The translations under genes and the position numbers were made by a program. Of a DNA stretch of 64,000 bases, positions 13,267 to 30,931 are shown piece after piece (within the stretch, counting starts at the first letter, position 1; each line of letters starts with the position of its first letter). Below the pieces are notes generated by a model. That model saw nothing but the letters and a program-made list of their open reading frames with translations. It made no database searches and was not told the origin of the DNA. The stretch comes from Halobacteriota archaeon (GTDB lineage Archaea; Halobacteriota; Bog-38; Methanoflorentales; Methanoflorentaceae), in the NCBI GenBank assembly GCA_050013755.1, contig JBEKER010000004.1:8316-72315 (forward strand). Direction: 5' to 3'.

Positions 13267-14082
13267 TCAGTAGACGAGGAGTAACCCGTATGAGTTTAAG
13301 TTCGTGTGGGTGATCATTCCGTAGACATTCCCCTCGCATGGAATTACCTCTATTGGCAAGTCAAGCTTCCTTACCGTGGCAAACACGTCGACCCCGACTG
13401 CTTCCATTGAGGTTCGAACCCTCTCGGCGTGCCTGCAAGCCCTCTTCAGCGAGAGGTCCACGACGCCCTCTGACTGCTCAGCTACGCACTCGTCGCAGTA
13501 AACACACGGGTACGCCGCAAAGGCTAGGGCTTTGTAATAACCTTGATAGAACGCGTGTTGCTCGAGTTCGTACACCGTGTCGCCGATCCAACTTATCAGC
13601 CCTTTGAGAAACGGATGCCAATCTTCAGGTATACTCTTAGGGTCGATATCTCCCATTCCGGGTATTCCCTTGAAGTGCACGATATACGCTTTTGAATACT
13701 CTTTGAGAAGGTCTCTCGTCTCGGAAGGGCTTGGGACGTATGGGGGACAGCCGAGGTGCTTTGCGAAGCCCTTGCAACCAAACTTACAGCGCCATCTTAC
13801 CCATTCGCTCACCACAATTTCACGCGGGTCAATCTCATAAATTTGAGCGTTGTTTTTCTTAGCTAACGCCTTAAGCTCATTTTCTAACGTTTTATCGTCC
13901 ATATGTATCCCTTTGAAGCTTGTCAAAGAAATTTCGCGATCGTGAGGCCCCACGGTCATACTTTTGATAATATGCGCGCAATCCTTCATTCTCTTTGCTA
14001 TTTCCTCAAATCGTTCCTTTTTGCTATGGTTCTGAGCGATGCGTGAGGTATCTGCCGTGATTGCGATAAGCTGTTCAGACAT
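13267..14082 (-). CDS. DUF2284-like metal-binding protein
   Basis: EWVRWRCKFGCKGFAKHLGCPPYVP matches my recollection of the DUF2284 C..GC......CPP core, plus a CVYCDEC cluster; start uncertain (14082, or 13902 at MDDKTL). Confidence 0.6.
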   Translation of the reverse strand: MSEQLIAITADTSRIAQNHSKKERFEEIAKRMKDCAHIIKSMTVGPHDREISLTSFKGIHMDDKTLENELKALAKKNNAQIYEIDPREIVVSEWVRWRCKFGCKGFAKHLGCPPYVPSPSETRDLLKEYSKAYIVHFKGIPGMGDIDPKSIPEDWHPFLKGLISWIGDTVYELEQHAFYQGYYKALAFAAYPCVYCDECVAEQSEGVVDLSLKRACRHAERVRTSMEAVGVDVFATVRKLDLPIEVIPCEGNVYGMITHTNLNSYGLLLVY

Positions 14083-14270
14083 GGAGCGTTCAAAAAGAAC
14101 CGTCGGCGAATGCAAATTTCAACCGCGCTTGAGAAGATCTTTTATTCTTTGTTCGCCGCCGGCGATTTCCAGTTTTCGGAGGGCCCGCGCCAGTGTATCC
14201 TTGCCAGCAACGTCTGCGGCGTATTGATCGGCCGAATGCTCGTCGTTATACGGGACAAAAGTCAGAGAGC

Positions 14271-14504
14271 TTAACCCGCTAGAGACGATACCAGCTTGCT
14301 CGGGCTGTGCTTGACGTGGTATGCTTCGTGAGCTACCACAGCTGTTACCTCATCTTTATCGAGCCGTTCCAGGAGCCCGACGGACAGATAGGCGGCGCGC
14401 CGATGGGCAAATGCCCGTATTATTTGCGTGTCGATCACCCGTATGGGTATGCCAAACTGCGCCTCGAGCGTTGCGACGTACGACGAAATGCCTGCGTGTT
14501 TCAT
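14271..14504 (-). pseudogene. fragment of an M48/HtpX-type zinc metallopeptidase
   Basis: 77 aa containing ...AFAHRRAAYLSVGLLERLDKDEVTAVVAHEAYHVKH (HExxH) and then a stop; lacks the membrane N-terminus and the C-terminal half. Confidence 0.55.
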
Positions 14505-14606
14505 CTGGCCTGTGCGCGTGAGGCAGTATCGAACGAGGCTGAGCGTGGGTCCATCCTACAAAATAGCCACATGCGAGAGATGGATGGGGAAAGGAATCAT
14601 GAATAG

Positions 14607-15030
14607 TCAATGGGGCCTTCGACTTTGAGGTGACCTGGGACTCGTCCTAGGGCAAAGGTCGGCCCGGATGGCATATCGAGGACACGGCCATCATCGAGAA
14701 CTGCTTCGGAGCGCAATATGATATCCACGGCGGAGCTATGGATCTGCTTCCCTCACCACGAGGCGGAGATCGCCCGGATGGAGGCTGCCTCAGGAAAGAA
14801 GCCGCTGGTGAGATACTGGATGCACACCGGCTTTCTCAATGTCATGAGCGAGAAGATGGCCAAGTCTCTCGGAAACTTCACAACTGTCAGGGATATGCTG
14901 CGAGAATATGAGGCTAACGCCTTCCGATTCTTCGTTCTTCTGGCGCACTACAGAAGTCCCATCGACTTCTCAGAAAGGCTTTAGAGCAAGCTCGCAAGAG
15001 TCTGGAGCGGACACGTCAGGCCGCGAAGAT
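14607..15030 (+). pseudogene. cysS: decayed internal fragment of class-I cysteinyl-tRNA synthetase
   Basis: Reads [42 protein letters not shown], then a frameshift, FPHHEAEIA...[22 protein letters not shown]...[10 protein letters not shown], then a second frameshift, [12 protein letters not shown]-terminal ~200 aa and the C-terminus are absent. Confidence 0.75.
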
Positions 15031-15296
15031 TATCGAGGAGCAATCTCCCGAGCGATATCATCAGAGAACGTGCGGCTCATTGCAGCGTGATATTGTTCGA
15101 TCAGCGGATCGAAATACTCCGGCTTCTGCCGGTCTTTGAAATCAGATTCGTCGAGCGTCGGCTTGAAGTGCATTGCGTATAGGTCCGAGACCTGTACGGT
15201 GTGCCCCGCTTCAGTGAGTGTATCGACAGCTACAGTCCGCATCGTCGCATTAAACGAGTGCGGATTCGGATGTGCGTAGACGATTAGCACATTCAT
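15030..15296 (-). pseudogene. N-terminal fragment of a flavodoxin-fold NAD(P)H:quinone oxidoreductase (NQO1/MdaB-like)
   Basis: MNVLIVYAHPNPHSFNATM...SDLYAMHFKP... is a typical start, but the ORF ends after 88 aa where it abuts the cysS fragment. Confidence 0.55.
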
Positions 15297-15598
15297 CTAT
15301 TATCAACCCCCAGATAACCAGCGTAAGCAAGCGCGACTTAATCGCGCTTTAGTCTTGCATTCAACACATTTGCCATATCTTTACAGGTTTTTGCCAACAC
15401 TCGATTTTTTTTGTCGGAACGAGTCGAGGTCGTGACTGCTGGAGCTTTTTGAGGTTAAGCATTAGGTGTATTATTCGCAGCGCGGGGGCGGTTAGAACGT
15501 GCCAAAATTGTCGCAACAAGCACACTCAAGAGGCTCCACGTCCCATATAGTAATGTCGCACAATGCTATGTTGTCAGAGAAACGAACGGATCTTTCTC

Positions 15599-15715
15599 CT
15601 AGAATCCTCCCAGCAGACAGCAGTAACTACCTGAACCTGCGCATGCTGAGGCTGCATTCCAGCAGCAGCTGTAGCCTCTCGTGCACGTCAGGCAACAACG
15701 TTGTGCATTAGCCAT
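15599..15715 (-). CDS. candidate 38-aa cysteine-rich peptide (unverified small ORF)
   Basis: ATG 15715 to TAG 15599 gives MANAQRCCLTCTRGYSCCWNAASACAGSGSYCCLLGGF (8 Cys, three CC pairs). Divergent from tusA across an AT-rich box (GAAAATATTCC/GGAATATTTTC). No clear SD; below the ORF-track cutoff. Confidence 0.25.
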   Translation of the reverse strand: MANAQRCCLTCTRGYSCCWNAASACAGSGSYCCLLGGF

Positions 15716-15808
15716 TGCGTTTACAAAAGAGATTACCACGATTTCAATGTGGAAGGAATATTTTCTAGTAATACAACGCCCCTAGTAAGTTTCTGGAGAT
15801 GGATGATC

Positions 15809-16048
15809 ATGGCGGATCAGCTACCCGCAAAAAGTCTCGATATGGTTGGATTATACTGTCCTGTCCCGCTGTTTAAAACACGGGAGGGCATCGATAGTAT
15901 CAAAGTTGGTGAAGTGCTTGAGGTGATCGCAGACGATCCAGCTGCAGAGGAAGATATCACGCGGTTTGTGAAGCGGACCGGTCATGAACTGGTGAAATTC
16001 GAGAACAATGAAGGAGTTTTGCGTTTCTTAATCAGGAAAAAAAAGTAG
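15809..16048 (+). CDS. tusA: TusA/SirA-family sulfur carrier
   Basis: LDMVGLYCPVPLFKTREGI (CPxP persulfide cysteine), ~79 aa; SD GGAGA 9 nt upstream of the ATG at 15809. Confidence 0.8.
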   Translation: MADQLPAKSLDMVGLYCPVPLFKTREGIDSIKVGEVLEVIADDPAAEEDITRFVKRTGHELVKFENNEGVLRFLIRKKK

Positions 16049-16061
16049 AGGTGAGATGATT

Positions 16062-16424
16062 ATGACAAATGAAAAGATGTTGCTATACGTGCAGACAAGC
16101 GACAATCCAGAGCGCCAGTATTCCCCACTTGTGCTTGCACAAACGGCGAAGGCAATGGAATTGGAACCTGTGATTTACTTTCTAGGACAAGGATTGCGCA
16201 TTTTACTACCAGGAGCGGCTGAAAAAATAAAGTTGGGGTCATTCCCAAGTGTAAAAGAGATGCTCGATCAGACACTGCAAATGGGCATCACAGTGTACGT
16301 ATGTGAGGCATCGAAGCAGATGCTTGGCTGGGACAAGGTCGAGCTCATCGAGGGTCTAAAAATCGTGGGTGCGGGAACATTAAATGATTTGGTTCTCGAA
16401 GCAAAAGGCACCCTGTGGTTTTAA
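16062..16424 (+). CDS. DsrE/DsrF-like (DrsE_2 type) sulfur-relay protein
   Basis: ~120 aa Rossmann-like pattern LLYVQTS..., conserved Cys in VYVCEAS, C-terminal GAGTLNDLVLEAKGTLWF; SD GAGGTGA 7 nt before the ATG at 16062. Confidence 0.7.
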   Translation: MTNEKMLLYVQTSDNPERQYSPLVLAQTAKAMELEPVIYFLGQGLRILLPGAAEKIKLGSFPSVKEMLDQTLQMGITVYVCEASKQMLGWDKVELIEGLKIVGAGTLNDLVLEAKGTLWF

Positions 16425-16536
16425 AGTGTACTAATTTTTTTTCTTTATTTTCTGGCGGTGTTTATCGTAGGAAAAGAATAAAATGCACTACTGTACTATT
16501 TTTTCTAGGAGGTGATTTCTCGTAGCAAAAGAAATC

Positions 16537-17703
16537 GTGTACCTCGACTATCAATCTGCTAAGCCGGTTGATCCTGAAGTCATTGCCGCAATGACTCCAT
16601 ATATGGTCGAAAAGTTTGGAAATGCGTCGTCGTTGCACGAGGTGGGTGATTGGTCTACTGAAGCTCTTGATTCGTCACGTAGGATGATCGCACATTTTGT
16701 GAATGCTCGCGAACCAGAGGAAATCATCTTCACGTCTGGTGCGACTGAAGCGAACAACGTTGCGATTATCGGGTATGCGCTGCGGAACAAGCAGAAGGGT
16801 AAACATGTGATTATTAGCGAGGTTGAACACATTTCAATACTCAACATCGCCAAATATCTCAGAAAGAATGGTTTCGAGGTATCGACTGTCCCCGTTGATT
16901 ATACGGGCACCGTGCGTCTCGACAAACTCGAAGAGCGTATTAGACCCGATACGATCTTAATCTCAATCCAGCACGCCAATAACGAGATAGGAACGATTCA
17001 GCCAGTTATGTCGATTGGAAACATCGCCCGTGAAAACAATCTCGTGTTCCATGTCGATGCAGTCGCTTCAGAAGGTCAGATACCAATCGATGTGCAGCGG
17101 GACTTCATAGATATGCTCACCTTATCGTCAAATGACATTTACGGCCCACGGGGTGTTGGTGCCCTCTACGTACGGAAAGGATTTCTTCTCAATCCGCTGA
17201 TCATCGGTGGGGGTCAAGAGCGCGGATTACGTTCAGGAACTGAGGATGTGGCTGCCATTGTCGGTTTCGCGAAGGCAGCAGAACTGGCTTTACAGTATAT
17301 GCCCGAGGAAAGCAAACGGTTGCGGCAGCTGAGAGATAAAGCCATCAAAACGGTATTAGAAACCGTACCACGATCGTATCTCAATGGACATCCGACAAAC
17401 CGACTTCCGAACAACGCCCATTTCCGGTTCGATTTTATCGAAGGAGAATCGATATTACTCTCTTTTAAAGAACGGGGCATCGCCGTTTCAACGGGGTCCG
17501 CGTGTTCGTCACAGACACTCGAGCCGAGTCACACCTTGATGTCACTGGGATTGTTGCACGAGGAGGCACACGGGTCGTTGGAAATCACGATGGGACGATT
17601 CACGAGAGAAGCAGACGTCGACACATTCGTTGAAGCGCTGCCGGGTATCGTGAAACGACTCCGTGACATGTCGCCACTTACAAAGACAGAGGTGGGTATG
17701 TAA
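16537..17703 (+). CDS. iscS: IscS/MisS-like class-I cysteine desulfurase homolog lacking the PLP-binding lysine
   Basis: Full-length NifS/IscS fold (TSGATEANN, HANNEIG, HVDAV, STGSACSS), but the canonical SxHK reads LSSNDIYGPRG (H to N, K to D); GTG start; TAATG overlap with iscU. Confidence 0.85.
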   Translation: MYLDYQSAKPVDPEVIAAMTPYMVEKFGNASSLHEVGDWSTEALDSSRRMIAHFVNAREPEEIIFTSGATEANNVAIIGYALRNKQKGKHVIISEVEHISILNIAKYLRKNGFEVSTVPVDYTGTVRLDKLEERIRPDTILISIQHANNEIGTIQPVMSIGNIARENNLVFHVDAVASEGQIPIDVQRDFIDMLTLSSNDIYGPRGVGALYVRKGFLLNPLIIGGGQERGLRSGTEDVAAIVGFAKAAELALQYMPEESKRLRQLRDKAIKTVLETVPRSYLNGHPTNRLPNNAHFRFDFIEGESILLSFKERGIAVSTGSACSSQTLEPSHTLMSLGLLHEEAHGSLEITMGRFTREADVDTFVEALPGIVKRLRDMSPLTKTEVGM

Positions 17704-18497
17704 TGCCAAAGAGCACACAATATACACTGAAGGTGTTGGATCACTTCAAGAATCCGCGGAATGTCGGCACCCTCGAAGGCAAGGGTGTTGCCGTGGGACG
17801 GGTCGGAAACCCTGTATGCGGGGATTTGATGGACATCTACATCAAAGTCGACGATGACGGCAAGATCGAGGACATCAAGTTTAAGACGTTCGGGTGTGGT
17901 TCAGCAGTCGCAACGAGCAGTATGATTACCGAAATTGCAAAGGGAAAGACCCTCGATGAAGCAATGAAGATAACCCGACAAGATGTGGCTGACGAGCTCG
18001 AAGGGTTGCCCCCTATCAAGATGCACTGCTCCAACCTAGCCGCAGATGCGCTCCACGAGGCGATCAAAAACTTCCGGGAAGGGAAAAAAGGACCTATAGA
18101 GCTCGGTGAAACACGCTTCGCCTGCCCTGCCGGTGAGGTGAAGAACGTCATAGGCCTTGCGGAATTCGTGGGGAAAGGTGTATTCACTGGTTATGAGCAT
18201 CCTGAGCAGTTTCGTGACAAGCGCGTGCTGGTCGTGGAATTTGATCAAAACAGCGTTGAATTTGCGCTCGAATTAACGAAGGTAACAGGTCGGGTGATTT
18301 TATTGTCACCCTTGGAACAGCTCGCGGTGAATGATGAATTAAAGACTCAGGTAAAACGATCCGATATTAAACATTTGAAACAGGCAGAGCTTGTGGAAGT
18401 ATCCGGGGGTTCAGAGGTGGAAAAGGTGCGGATCCACGACCTTGACGAGGATGAAGAATATGACTTGGTTGTGGACGCCGTTGTGGTCCCTTCGTGA
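17703..18497 (+). CDS. iscU: IscU scaffold fused to a degenerate thioredoxin-reductase NADPH-domain-like module
   Basis: N-terminal 130 aa has NPVCGD, FGCGSAVATSS and MHCSNLA. The C-terminal ~130 aa follows the TrxR NADPH-domain pattern with the CxxC and GGGNSA motifs replaced (GYEHPEQF, VVEFDQNSVEFALEL). Confidence 0.85.
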   Translation: MPKSTQYTLKVLDHFKNPRNVGTLEGKGVAVGRVGNPVCGDLMDIYIKVDDDGKIEDIKFKTFGCGSAVATSSMITEIAKGKTLDEAMKITRQDVADELEGLPPIKMHCSNLAADALHEAIKNFREGKKGPIELGETRFACPAGEVKNVIGLAEFVGKGVFTGYEHPEQFRDKRVLVVEFDQNSVEFALELTKVTGRVILLSPLEQLAVNDELKTQVKRSDIKHLKQAELVEVSGGSEVEKVRIHDLDEDEEYDLVVDAVVVPS

Positions 18498-18506
18498 ACT
18501 ATCGTT

Positions 18507-18534
18507 GAATAAAGGCGATTTATTCCTCTTTTTT
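18507..18534 (+). terminator. hairpin plus T-run after iscU
   Basis: GAATAAA-GGCGA-TTTATTC followed by CTCTTTTTT, 10 nt after the stop. Confidence 0.45.
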
Positions 18535-19049
18535 AACAGCTCTTTGGAACTTCGGGCAGCCTACAAGTGATACGTCGGGCTTTGAGATAGTTAAGAAGAA
18601 ATCTCGTAGATTCTTTGTTCCTTTTTTCGATTTCCTTTGATTTCTAGCCGGTTTTTCTCGATGCCCCCCCCCTCAAAAAAATGCGGTGGGTCAACAAACT
18701 GCCATGGCTAAATCGCAAGAAGTGGTTGTTCACGACCAACAAGGAGACACGCGCGACCAAGCGGGCGATGGCTTGAACGATGTGGCGCAGTGCGTTGAGC
18801 AATATAGAAGCCCACACGGCGCTGTCGCCGGCTGGCGGATAGTTCCACTTCCATTCCGAAAGATCTCGCAACAGGTCCGGGCCATAAATACCCTGGAGCG
18901 TTGCGACCTGCCTTAAGCGACTCGGAGAGTGCATTTATCTGCACGTAGAAGGTCAATGGTGCGGGCAGTCTGTGTAAACTCAGTTTAGGAGCCATGCCGC
19001 TCTCTCCCCCCTTGTGCGCAGCACACATTTGGACGGATGTACGTCAGCG

Positions 19050-20126
19050 CTAGACGTCCCGGTGCGGTACAAGATCGCAGCCAGTACACGGCGCGCACAT
19101 CGTTTGCGCTACGTCAGCCCGCAACTCGTGTTTGTCTAGCAGTTCGCGTTCCTTTCGCGCTAATCGCAAGAGTCGTTCTGCGTCCGGTCGTCGCATGCCT
19201 GTTTGCGAGCGCAAGGGATGCTCGACAACTGCTCTGAGGATGGGGATCACGCCTATTCCAGTAAGTTCTTCCATGCCGTTGATGATCGTGTCGTCATCCT
19301 CTCCCAACCCGACGAGGATATTGGAAAAGACTTTGTTTCGGCCGAAGACCTCTACAGCGTCCTTGAGGGCTTCCATAATGAATTCAAGTGAAAGCTCTGG
19401 ACACATCGTCTTGAAGAGCAGACGATCCATCGTCTCCACGTTGTACTTTAGCTCGTCGGCTCCAGCGTCCTTCAATAGCTTTGTGGAGTTCTCGGTAGGA
19501 TAGACGGACACGCCGATGGGGAGATCGTACTTCGCCCTTAAGGCGCGAACGATAGCTGCGATTCTTTCAACTTCGCGCTCTGGTGACTCTTCGACACCGG
19601 AAGTCAACGCTATGGCTCTTAATTTATGAGCGAGCTTTGGATCGGCGAGAATTCTTGCTATCGCCGTTTCAACATCGCTCTGGTCTTTTACCGAACCTCC
19701 CAAAAGTGGCACCGGGCAGTACTGGCAGTCGAATATACACACCTCGCTTACCGTGATATACGCTTGTTCAGGGCAATGGGCAATGGCATCCTCAAGATAC
19801 CCGCGGACGATCTCTTTTTCGTGGTCGCGAATGACCACTTCATCTCCTTCAAGCGATGCCTTGAGACGGGAGCTGTGTTTTATTCCCAGGCGCACCCGGT
19901 GACCGTTAAATCGAAAGAAAAAAGACGTGAGTCCGGCACCAGGCCCGGACGCAGGAGTCGTAATGCGCCCAAGTATGCCCTCATCAATGTCCACGCTTCC
20001 CTCTGCAATAAGGAAAGCTTTCGTCTCCGCACTCTTATCCATCGTTTGTGCCCTCATTTGTGCCTTTGACCAGCCGCCCGCTGCAATGACGCGCGCAAGT
20101 TGTCCCCGTTTAATTGCCTTATTCAT
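19050..20126 (-). CDS. radical SAM enzyme (BioB/LipA-like core) with ~110-aa N-terminal domain and C-terminal CxxCxxC
   Basis: CIFDCQYC (Cx3Cx2C), NILVGLGEDDDT (BioB-like GxGE), C-terminal MCAPCTGCD; N-terminal TTPASGPGAGLTSFFFRFNGHRVRL domain not recognised. Confidence 0.8.
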   Translation of the reverse strand: MNKAIKRGQLARVIAAGGWSKAQMRAQTMDKSAETKAFLIAEGSVDIDEGILGRITTPASGPGAGLTSFFFRFNGHRVRLGIKHSSRLKASLEGDEVVIRDHEKEIVRGYLEDAIAHCPEQAYITVSEVCIFDCQYCPVPLLGGSVKDQSDVETAIARILADPKLAHKLRAIALTSGVEESPEREVERIAAIVRALRAKYDLPIGVSVYPTENSTKLLKDAGADELKYNVETMDRLLFKTMCPELSLEFIMEALKDAVEVFGRNKVFSNILVGLGEDDDTIINGMEELTGIGVIPILRAVVEHPLRSQTGMRRPDAERLLRLARKERELLDKHELRADVAQTMCAPCTGCDLVPHRDV

Positions 20127-29752: not shown

Positions 29753-30931
29753 CTATTCGGGCTTTCCATAGCCCTCATCCCTGTACGCATAGAGGGGCGA
29801 CATCTGTCGCAGCTGATCAACGATTTCTGGGAGGACGTCGTTTACGTATTGAACATCTGCTTCCGTCGTCTCTCTCCCTAGGGTAAGCCTCAGACTGCCG
29901 TGAGCATCAACGGGGTCCAGGCCGATCGCCAGCAGCACGTGTGATGGTTCAAGTTTCTTTGACGAGCAGGCGGAACCAGTCGATCCAGCAATCCCCTTTG
30001 CGTTCAAGCGGAGCACAAGCGACTCCCCCTCGATATAGCTGAAGCTGAAATTGGTGTTGTTCGGAAGACGGCGCTCCTTTCCACCGTTGAGTCGAGTGTA
30101 AGGGATTTCTCGCAGTACGGCGTCGATTAGCTCATCCCTGAGCCTTTGTATGCGCACATTGTCTGCGAAATCTTCGATCGCCAGACGCATTGCCTCACTA
30201 AAGCCAACAATACCCGGCACGTTCTCGGTGCCGCTTCTGAGGCCGCGCTCGTGGCCGCCGCCGAAAATGAGCGGTTTTAATTTGGTGCCCTTCCGAATGT
30301 ACAGGCATCCGACCCCTTTCGGTCCGTATATCTTGTGTGATGAAATAGAGAGCATGTCCACATTGAGAGCGGCCACGTCCACTGGAATCTTCCCGACGCT
30401 CTGGACTGCATCGGTGTGCATGTAGACGCCGTGCGACGCTGCGATCGCTCCGACCTCAGCTATGGGCTGTATTGAGCCGATCTCGTTGTTAGCGTGCATG
30501 ATTGATATGAGTCGCGTGTTGTCCCGAATCGCCTCTTCCACTTCGCTAGGATTTATCCGGCCGTCAACATCAACAGAAACGTAAGTTACCTCGTGTCCAA
30601 GCTTTTCAAGAAACTTGCACGTCTCGAGGACCGCGGGATGTTCGATCGCGGAGGTGATGATATGATCGCTCTCGCCACTGCCATCGCGTAGTACTCCACG
30701 CAAAGCCATATTGTCCGATTCAGTTCCGCCTGACGTAAAAACGATCTCTGGCGGGGTCGCTCCAATCGAGTGCGCTATCTGTTCTCGCGCGTCCTCGATC
30801 GCCTTGCGTGCCTCAAGTCCATAGGTGTGGAGGCTCGAGGGGTTTCCGAAGCGCTCTAAAAAGTACGTGCGCATCACGTCGAGGATCTCAGGGCGCATCG
30901 GCGTGGTCGCGGCGTGATCAAGATAAATCAT
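29753..30931 (-). CDS. class-I cysteine desulfurase (NifS/IscS type, canonical)
   Basis: MIYLDHAATTP, TSGGTESDN, HANNEIG, SISSHKIYGPKG (PLP Lys present), STGSACSS. Confidence 0.9.
   Translation of the reverse strand: MIYLDHAATTPMRPEILDVMRTYFLERFGNPSSLHTYGLEARKAIEDAREQIAHSIGATPPEIVFTSGGTESDNMALRGVLRDGSGESDHIITSAIEHPAVLETCKFLEKLGHEVTYVSVDVDGRINPSEVEEAIRDNTRLISIMHANNEIGSIQPIAEVGAIAASHGVYMHTDAVQSVGKIPVDVAALNVDMLSISSHKIYGPKGVGCLYIRKGTKLKPLIFGGGHERGLRSGTENVPGIVGFSEAMRLAIEDFADNVRIQRLRDELIDAVLREIPYTRLNGGKERRLPNNTNFSFSYIEGESLVLRLNAKGIAGSTGSACSSKKLEPSHVLLAIGLDPVDAHGSLRLTLGRETTEADVQYVNDVLPEIVDQLRQMSPLYAYRDEGYGKPE

Follow-up and report, generated by a model that had tools for sequence, protein, structure and literature searches.

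Our analysis of a 64,000-nucleotide stretch of DNA from a Halobacteriota archaeon of the family Methanoflorentaceae (GenBank assembly GCA_050013755.1, contig JBEKER010000004.1, positions 8,316 to 72,315 of the forward strand), referred to here as the window, revealed a four-gene cassette. In this cassette, genes for two putative sulfur carriers, TusA and a DsrE-like protein, precede genes for an iron-sulfur (Fe-S) cluster assembly pair, IscS and IscU, and the IscS homologue has aspartate at the position of the lysine for pyridoxal 5′-phosphate (PLP). We consider it fairly probable that Fe-S assembly on this lysine-less IscS-IscU pair is fed by a persulfide relay through TusA and DsrE, which would replace cysteine desulfuration. 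The open reading frame (ORF) listing and profile searches placed the genes in the order tusA, dsrE, iscS, iscU within 15809-18497, all on the + strand, which agrees with the four same-strand genes of the initial annotation. That annotation had also predicted that tusA and dsrE would accompany lysine-less iscS in other genomes. Such linkage was found in 60 of 62 lysine-less IscS loci, as against 0 of 99 lysine-bearing ones.

In the proposed route, TusA would pick up sulfane sulfur on Cys17, with the help of the DsrE3-like protein in most lineages, and the carriers would hand it to Cys323 of IscS. IscS would pass the sulfur on to the cysteines of IscU, where it would be reduced and combined with iron. 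Reducing power would be built in where IscU is fused to a complete flavoprotein resembling thioredoxin reductase (TrxR) and ferredoxin-NADP+ reductase (FNR), and in the window the electrons would come from elsewhere. We infer that the carriers donate sulfur to the IscS cysteine, that TusA is loaded by polysulfide or S0 or by the resident lysine-bearing IscS, and that an electron donor serves the window cassette.

Linkage of carrier genes to lysine-less IscS

Three sets of loci were surveyed: 80 IscS-type loci from Bacteria and Archaea, with one genome per species; the best 30 matches among 401 genomes of the window's phylum; and 45 matches lower in the same ranking, together with five Methanosarcina-like genomes. 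Profiles made from the window TusA, DsrE and IscU were used to scan the ORFs, an alignment gave the residue at the lysine position, and duplicates were removed. Linkage was defined as tusA and/or dsrE located at most 1.5 kb upstream of iscS on the same strand. The raw Fisher p for linkage was about 2e-42, calculated on rows that are phylogenetically non-independent.

Among the first 57 lysine-less loci, 36 had both carriers, 14 had tusA only, 5 had dsrE only (several of them at contig ends), and 2 had neither. Both carriers were present in all of the Methanosarcina-type loci (5/5). Any tusA or dsrE was found in the flanks of 1 of 92 lysine-only loci. The gene order was constant, tusA-(dsrE)-iscS-iscU, and the gaps were often 4 nt or the genes overlapped; in some sublineages dsrE has been lost while tusA stays adjacent to iscS. 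The archaeal linked loci belong to the Archaeoglobus fulgidus family, several methanogen and Methanoperedens-like families, Promethearchaeota, Thorarchaeota, Bathyarchaeales, and Methanomethyliaceae. The bacterial ones belong to Actinomycetota and to one metagenome-assembled genome (MAG) of Spirochaetota.

The window also contains a canonical lysine-bearing IscS paralog at 29753-30931. This gene exists with the motif that had been quoted for it, but it is on the - strand, which corrects the initial annotation, and no iscU, tusA, or dsrE is adjacent to it. The native lysine-bearing IscS in the window's genus likewise has no adjacent iscU. A stand-alone native IscU was located at G000:C4:1255-1620. 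This is some 7 kb ahead of the window and about 37 kb from the native IscS; in another genome of the set, G005, this distance is about 20 kb.

The IscS homologue lacks the PLP lysine

The IscS homologue at 16537-17703 matched PF00266 over its full length (E 1.7e-73), as a protein of the class-V aminotransferase fold. Its score with TIGR03402, the NifS equivalog model, was 479.8 bits, below the curated cut-off of 530.75, and the canonical paralog scored 539.6 bits, above this cut-off. The two paralogs shared 50% identity in pairwise BLASTP, in which DMLTLSSNDIYGPRG of the lysine-less protein was aligned to DMLSISSHKIYGPKG of the paralog and AVAS to AVQS, with STGSACSS common to both. The substitutions are Asp200 for the PLP lysine, Asn199 for His, and Ala177 for Gln. 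An alignment of 156 sequences also placed Asp in the lysine column and Ala in the Gln column of the window protein. The SxHK motif of the Schiff-base lysine is therefore absent from the lysine-less IscS, which reads SSNDIYGP where the paralog reads SSHKIYGP. Two other PLP contacts, His98 and Asp174, are kept. In the Gln column, the window IscS has Ala, as do most of the lysine-less sequences, and the lysine-bearing ones listed all keep Gln. The persulfide loop STGSACSS with Cys323 is intact, and it is invariant in the alignment columns examined. All IscS motifs quoted in the initial annotation, including the intact loop, proved to be exact in the pairwise alignment.

The closest solved relative of the lysine-less IscS is A. 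fulgidus IscS2 (4EB5/4EB7/4HVK; phmmer E 1.8e-141, 57% identity). At the lysine site this relative has DMLTISSNDIYGPKG, and its SSNDIYGP motif is identical to that of the window protein. The same motif was present in all aligned homologues among the database matches listed, down to 78% identity. This recurrence, together with the alignment, indicates that the substitution is real and is a family trait; a sequencing error as its cause was ruled out by the same residues in the homologues. Alignment had been named beforehand as the check on the change from Lys to Asp, and the change stands in the 4EB5 match, the pairwise alignment, and the 156-sequence alignment, with no lysine at the PLP site. 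The assignment to an A. fulgidus-type IscS in a minimal IscS/IscU pair was also correct, as the motif and the clade are the same.

The A. fulgidus IscS2-IscU pair is AF0564/AF0565, with PDB entries 4EB5, 4EB7, and 4HVK and a D199K variant, 4R5F. In the crystal structure of AfIscS-IscU, the Cys loop of IscS provides the fourth ligand of the [2Fe-2S] cluster on IscU. From its residues, the window IscS is predicted to be unable to form the PLP Schiff base, and hence to be unable to extract sulfur from cysteine. Cysteine desulfuration is not predicted because of the Asp at the lysine site and the published inactivity of the A. fulgidus orthologue. AfIscS2 was reported to have no cysteine desulfurase activity, and its Cys loop ligates a [2Fe-2S] cluster on IscU (PMC8918507, PMC7585200). 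The earlier statement that A. fulgidus IscS binds no PLP needs revision, since the protein was reported to bind pyridoxamine 5′-phosphate or PLP non-covalently (PMC8918507).

The A. fulgidus genome (G172) encodes a protein containing the 4EB5 sequence. At the locus of the crystallised IscS2, a DsrE-like gene lies upstream at a distance of 4 nt, and the IscS1 locus has tusA and dsrE upstream. These two IscS-type matches of A. fulgidus are both lysine-less. A single IscS-type match at E<=1e-60 was found in 17 of 18 sampled genomes of the A. fulgidus family, and it was lysine-less in all 15 genomes whose locus was read. As only lysine-less IscS was read in this family, sulfur must enter IscS-IscU there by a way other than an IscS-type desulfurase. 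On the 3′ side of A. fulgidus iscU1 (L115:89-3585) there are a second DsrE-family gene (DrsE_2), an unassigned 346-aa ORF, a SepCysS/SepSecS-family gene, and a DUF169 gene. This neighbourhood is suggestive of a link to tRNA-dependent cysteine synthesis.

TusA and DsrE carriers

The window TusA matched PF01206 with an E of 8.8e-25 and 86.8 bits (cut-off 28.6) and contains the motif LYCPVP. Its score with the NCBIfam TusA equivalog was 63.4 bits, below the cut-off of 78. Of the 50 TusA proteins whose genes stand next to lysine-less iscS, 49 keep the CPxP cysteine and 41 have another cysteine five positions N-terminal to it (DCxGxxCP). The window's subclade has Met at the latter position (Met12).

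The DsrE-like protein matched PF02635 (E 2.3e-15, 57.2 bits). Its best solved relative was 3MC3 (E 2.2e-13), a DsrE/DsrF-like protein whose MYVCVQS lines up with VYVCEAS of the window protein. As 3MC3 has been placed in the DsrE3A type (PMC11094781), the window protein appears to be DsrE3-like. The single conserved DsrE cysteine was kept in 40 of 41 homologues.

Phylogeny and number of lysine losses

An IscS tree was built without the site columns. In it, the Asp-type lysine-less IscS formed one clade of 56 rows beside the archaeal lysine-bearing IscS, with a support of 97 in the Shimodaira-Hasegawa-like approximate likelihood ratio test (SH-aLRT), and the window IscS is inside this clade. The Methanosarcina type (SAHTIHGP, K to T) was outside the Asp clade in the best tree, as was one actinobacterial MAG sequence (SAQQLYGP, K to Q), which has dsrE upstream. 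The best trees need three lysine losses. One clade for the Asp and Thr types was not rejected by the approximately unbiased (AU) test (p 0.42), so independent origins of the lysine loss by convergence are not claimed. Independent contrasts for the linkage gave 3 of 3 (p 0.25). Across two domains, at 45-60% protein identity, the loci have conserved the order of the genes, the cysteines of the carriers, the Cys loop of IscS, and the ligands of IscU.

These results also bear on a very improbable alternative, in which an ancestral tusA-dsrE operon moved as a block without functional coupling and the lysine-less IscS is a decaying relic. The lysine-less proteins are essentially one clade, the independent contrasts are too few for significance, and one copy in the window's genus (G082) has a split IscU and no tusA, all of which would agree with such a frozen arrangement. 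But decay does not agree with the conservation of order, carrier cysteines, Cys loop, and IscU ligands across the two domains, nor with the AfIscS-IscU complex, which binds a cluster (PDB 4EB5). The loss of dsrE with tusA retained is what would be expected under selection on the pair. Moreover, the two further lysine-loss lineages, K to T in Methanosarcina and K to Q in the actinobacterial MAG, also have carriers.

IscU and its C-terminal tail

The window IscU has 264 aa, and residues 6-127 correspond to NifU_N (PF01592, E 2.5e-49). The ligand set of IscU is complete, with CGD, FGCGS, MHCS, and LPPIK all present. An AlphaFold model made from eight sequences had a mean predicted local distance difference test (pLDDT) score of 80 and showed the IscU domain and a second domain with a disordered linker between them. 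Against IscU structures the model had template modelling (TM) scores of 0.85-0.91, normalised to the target.

The tail, residues 148-262, resembles the NADPH domain of thioredoxin reductase (TIGR01292 on 151-261, E 2.4e-10). Foldseek with the modelled tail retrieved the NADPH domains of 2ZBW, 3F8D, and 4ZN0, which are TrxR and TrxR-like FNR, at a root-mean-square deviation of about 2 A over about 125 columns. The tail itself lacks the usual marks of a TrxR or FNR: it has EFDQNS in place of GGGNSA, no CxxC, and no FAD domain, both FAD segments being lost. It is probably a structural or docking domain. A tail of this type is common to a strongly supported 10-row subclade, which includes the window's methanogen genus, Spirochaetota, Asgard archaea, and Actinomycetota. 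Methanosarcina IscU1 carries a DUF59/FeS_assembly_P domain instead of the TrxR-like tail.

Three related, Methanoperedens-like genomes encode, on the 3′ side of lysine-less iscS, a fusion of IscU with a complete TrxR/FNR-like flavoprotein (about 445 aa), and the window tail aligns to the NADPH domain of these full fusions. The fusion of G227 matched Pyr_redox_2 over positions 1-291 of 291 and has GxGxxG and GGGNSA but no CxxC. Such a full fusion may be a built-in electron donor for persulfide reduction. A flavodoxin gene follows the fusion in G227.

Mobility of the cassette

The cassette was found in 5 of 18 genomes of the genus. By blastn, window positions 15493-18655 matched G048:C34:5197-8362 at 96.7% identity over 3167 nt, which covers the four genes and short flanks. 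In G048, the cassette is on a different contig from the window's flanking genes. These flanks, a DUF2284 gene (13267-14115) and a radical SAM gene (19050-20126), are adjacent to each other in G005 and G048. In the genus and its sister genus, Pfam TusA matches were found only in cassette-bearing genomes and only inside the cassette, and a native stand-alone IscU is encoded elsewhere in the genus genomes. The different sites and the confinement of tusA to the cassette indicate that the four genes travel and persist as one unit. The 3.2-kb cassette is a horizontally mobile module that is probably self-contained for Fe-S assembly.

No meaningful direct or inverted repeats were found around the insertion. 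About 2 kb of extra DNA surrounds the cassette (13914-15492 and 18656-19048) inside the insertion between the DUF2284 and radical SAM genes. G122 has a larger insertion at the same site, where the radical SAM gene is in three pieces. In another locus of the genus (L085, G082:C58), IscU is split into two ORFs, and no tusA was found within 1 kb upstream of dsrE or elsewhere in the G082 genome; either decay or an assembly error would account for this copy. The window's genome encodes McrA, which places the host among the methanogens or their close relatives.

Such an accessory cassette, present in 5 of 18 genomes and standing beside native IscS, native IscU, and McrA-type metabolism, might be a stress or repair module. 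IscS-IscU would then hold or repair clusters, and TusA/DsrE would buffer sulfane sulfur in oxidative or sulfide stress. Several related loci are beside genes with desulfoferrodoxin-, rubrerythrin-, flavodiiron-, and peroxiredoxin-like N-termini and a Pfam-confirmed flavodoxin, and IscS1/IscU1 were not consistently detected in proteomes of Methanosarcina acetivorans (PMC7585200). We still think this quite unlikely: stress-gene neighbours were seen in a few loci only, and in the A. fulgidus-family loci read the lysine-less copy is the only IscS-type gene, so that it is no mere back-up there.

Source of the sulfur

In an alternative that follows the published proposal for the A. fulgidus pair, free sulfide would feed IscS-IscU. 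TusA/DsrE, acting downstream or alongside, would then carry sulfur from the complex or from sulfide toward acceptors such as tRNA thiolation, the molybdenum cofactor, or SepCysS, and would not supply cluster assembly. Sulfide has been proposed as the AfIscS-IscU source (PMC8918507) and feeds the SUF-like minimal system, SMS (PMC12192291); the known direction in Escherichia coli is from IscS to TusA (PMC13066941); and a SepCysS-like gene is near the A. fulgidus IscS1 locus. However, an E. coli mutant was not rescued by Af iscS2U2 alone, even when Na2S was supplied (bioRxiv 10.1101/2024.03.20.586028), and a lysine-less IscS would have no persulfide of its own to donate. As tusA is only inside the cassette in the genus, no housekeeping thiolation depends on it. 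The linkage is confined to lysine-less IscS and does not extend to the active form, which is the reverse of what carriers acting as downstream acceptors would predict. Feeding by free sulfide is thus unlikely in our judgement.

The TusA/DsrE relay is favoured by the substitutions in an IscS whose Cys loop is intact, by the linkage, which A. fulgidus itself displays, by the retained carrier cysteines, by the confinement of tusA to a cassette that moves as a whole, and by the lack of any other IscS-type gene in the A. fulgidus-family loci read. The IscU-flavoprotein fusions of related loci, and their neighbours of flavodoxin or coenzyme A disulfide reductase-TusA-rhodanese type, would also offer support. 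Several points weigh against the relay. The flow proposed here is opposite to that of E. coli, where sulfur runs from IscS to TusA (PMC13066941). Lysine-bearing Methanothrix iscSU also failed complementation, so the failure of the A. fulgidus pair is not specific to missing carriers (bioRxiv 10.1101/2024.03.20.586028). Two lysine-less loci (L133 and L137) have no carriers nearby. In the window, the T8 run and TATA-like box between dsrE and iscS make two transcripts possible. Lysine-less IscS may have from one to three origins, and the observed linkage is mostly retention after one event. Given the AU test and the independent contrasts, the weight of the linkage lies in its retention across very deep divergence, not in repeated origin.

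Tentatively, it is quite possible that lysine-less IscS with TusA/DsrE forms a distinct and widespread third sulfur route, which uses neither cysteine desulfuration nor free sulfide and to which some lineages add an IscU-fused reductase. This would explain all 'inactive' IscS, including the A. fulgidus pair. The route would possibly have arisen more than once (K to D, T, and Q), and it would spread between archaea and bacteria as a 3-kb cassette.

Layout, boundaries, and signals of the cassette

The features of the cassette and of the related loci are listed in the table. The stop codon of iscS and the start codon of iscU share one base, at 17703. No hscAB, fdx, or iscA was found in the unit 15493-18655.

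Table. Features of the cassette, its surroundings in the window, and the IscU fusions of related loci
Feature	Position	Strand	Remarks
TusA-family sulfur carrier	15809-16048	+	79 aa; PF01206; Cys17 in CPVP
DsrE3-like sulfur carrier	16056-16424	+	122 aa; PF02635; cysteine in VYVCEAS
dsrE-iscS intergenic gap	16425-16536	+	T8 run, TATA-like AAAAGAATAAAATG, GGAGGTGA box; read from sequence
Lysine-less IscS	16537-17703	+	388 aa; GTG start; PF00266
IscU scaffold domain	17703-18107	+	PF01592; three Cys, Asp, His, LPPIK
IscU C-terminal tail, degenerate TrxR/FNR-type NADPH-domain fold	18144-18497	+	TIGR01292, Foldseek
Unit common with a same-genus genome at another genomic site	15493-18655	+	blastn
AT-rich, TATA-like box about 35-50 nt 5′ of tusA	15757-15775	+	candidate archaeal promoter; read from sequence
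AT-rich hairpin (GAATAAA/TTTATTC) followed by CTCTTTTTT	18507-18534	+	candidate archaeal terminator; read from sequence
Canonical lysine-bearing IscS paralog (SSHKIYGP)	29753-30931	-	context only; TIGR03402
IscU-flavoprotein fusion	L118:1857-3257		G342
IscU-flavoprotein fusion	L119:1700-3085	-	G262
IscU-flavoprotein fusion	L122:1678-3060	-	G227

Position 15758 is the left edge of the homology common to all four cassette copies of the genus, and it coincides with the AT-rich box that the initial annotation had put forward as a promoter. The hairpin at 18507-18534 falls inside the unit common to G048 and G122. The terminator of the initial annotation is present as a hairpin with a T-run, but it did not pass a scan for G+C-rich, bacterial-type terminators; the host is an archaeon.

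The four genes lie on one strand, as had been described, but they are unevenly packed, with a 112-nt AT-rich gap containing the T8 run between dsrE and iscS. The G149 copy lacks a 66-nt segment of this gap that holds both the T-run and the TATA-like box; the segment is therefore an indel rather than a constant element of the cassette. In most other lineages there is almost no gap between dsrE and iscS. Transcription of the four genes as one transcript is likely in general, and in the window they may likewise form one transcript. A 38-aa Cys-rich ORF (MANAQRCCLTCTRGYSCCWNAASACAGSGSYCCLLGGF) on the - strand at 15599-15715 was rejected as probably no gene. It is partly outside the conserved stretch: homology to the window starts at 15659 in the G149 copy and at 15758 in the G122 copy, so this ORF is not in the conserved unit.

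Just 3′ of the cassette in Promethearchaeota is a protein of about 800 aa (L008:9363-11744 and L010:9753-12185). The L008 protein has 793 aa, with a coenzyme A-disulfide-reductase-like part, a TusA domain, and two rhodanese domains. These domains make it a candidate for an enzyme that generates or handles the sulfane sulfur of the relay. Cassette neighbours at L019:323-2959, L133:1173-2481, and L169:1718-3450 have N-termini that resemble, in the N-terminal part only, oxidative-stress proteins (desulfoferrodoxin, rubrerythrin or ferritin, flavodiiron, peroxiredoxin, flavodoxin, and nitroreductase).

Comparison with known systems

The window cassette is like A. fulgidus IscS2-IscU in its SSNDIYGP motif, its Cys loop, the position of iscU directly 3′ of iscS, and its membership of the same lysine-less clade. 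It differs in that the A. fulgidus IscU has a short helical tail only, whereas the window IscU has a 130-aa remnant of a TrxR NADPH domain. The published view of the A. fulgidus system is one of two proteins with sulfide as the presumed source, and carrier genes are unmentioned in the searchable papers on it. AfIscS was described as an inactive paralog, cluster assembly without desulfurase function being stated as an open question (PMC8918507).

The M. acetivorans isc1 cluster, which consists of MA0807 (IscU1), MA0808 (IscS1), MA0809 ('DrsE superfamily'), and MA0810 ('SirA-like'), has the same tusA-dsrE-iscS-iscU order, and our analysis confirmed this arrangement in five Methanosarcina-like genomes. 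IscS1 of M. acetivorans was reported to lack the PLP lysine (PMC7585200). There Thr stands in place of the lysine, after an unchanged His (SAHTIHGP), whereas the window has Asn-Asp; IscU1 is fused to DUF59/FeS_assembly_P, whereas the window IscU is fused to a TrxR-like domain; and the Methanosarcina IscS is outside the Asp clade in the best tree, although a common clade was not rejected. In the published account, MA0809 and MA0810 appear in a supplementary legend and are described in the text as having no known function (PMC7585200). We did not find the connection between TusA/DsrE and lysine-less IscS in the searchable literature, and an earlier mention elsewhere is possible. The remark in the initial annotation that the linkage is undescribed therefore holds within this literature, except that M. 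acetivorans isc1 had already been drawn with both genes, as of unknown function (PMC7585200).

MIS, the minimal ISC-type system (MisS-MisU), is likewise a pair of neighbouring IscS/NifS-type and IscU-type genes of an anaerobic archaeon, unaccompanied by chaperones, ferredoxin, or A-type carriers. It is a cysteine desulfurase with a scaffold and no carriers (PMC12192291, PMC13066941), whereas the window desulfurase is predicted to be inactive and two sulfur carriers are constant extra members. The proposed relay resembles the E. coli IscS-TusA system and the DsrE3A/TusA relays of the sulfur oxidisers Metallosphaera cuprina and Hyphomicrobium denitrificans, in which sulfane sulfur moves between proteins by way of a CPxP TusA and a DsrE3-type protein that has one active cysteine. 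In E. coli, TusA and IscS are physical partners (PMC11094781, PMC13066941). But the E. coli TusA receives its sulfur from an active IscS, for tRNA thiolation and the molybdenum cofactor, and in sulfur oxidisers the relay feeds sHdr or Dsr. The partner in the window is an inactive IscS with IscU, and the proposed flow is toward IscS.

Implications for Fe-S assembly in anaerobes

Ever since the structures of 2012-2015, the origin of the sulfur used by AfIscS-IscU has stood as an open question, and it still figures as such in reviews (PMC8918507). The linked carriers, which stand beside every sampled type of lysine-less IscS, are concrete candidates for the missing step, and missing carrier genes may bear on the failure of Af iscS2U2 alone in E. 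coli. The finding is relevant to the use of environmental sulfur for Fe-S cluster assembly in strict anaerobes, and it shows that archaea and bacteria exchange this capacity in the form of a small cassette.

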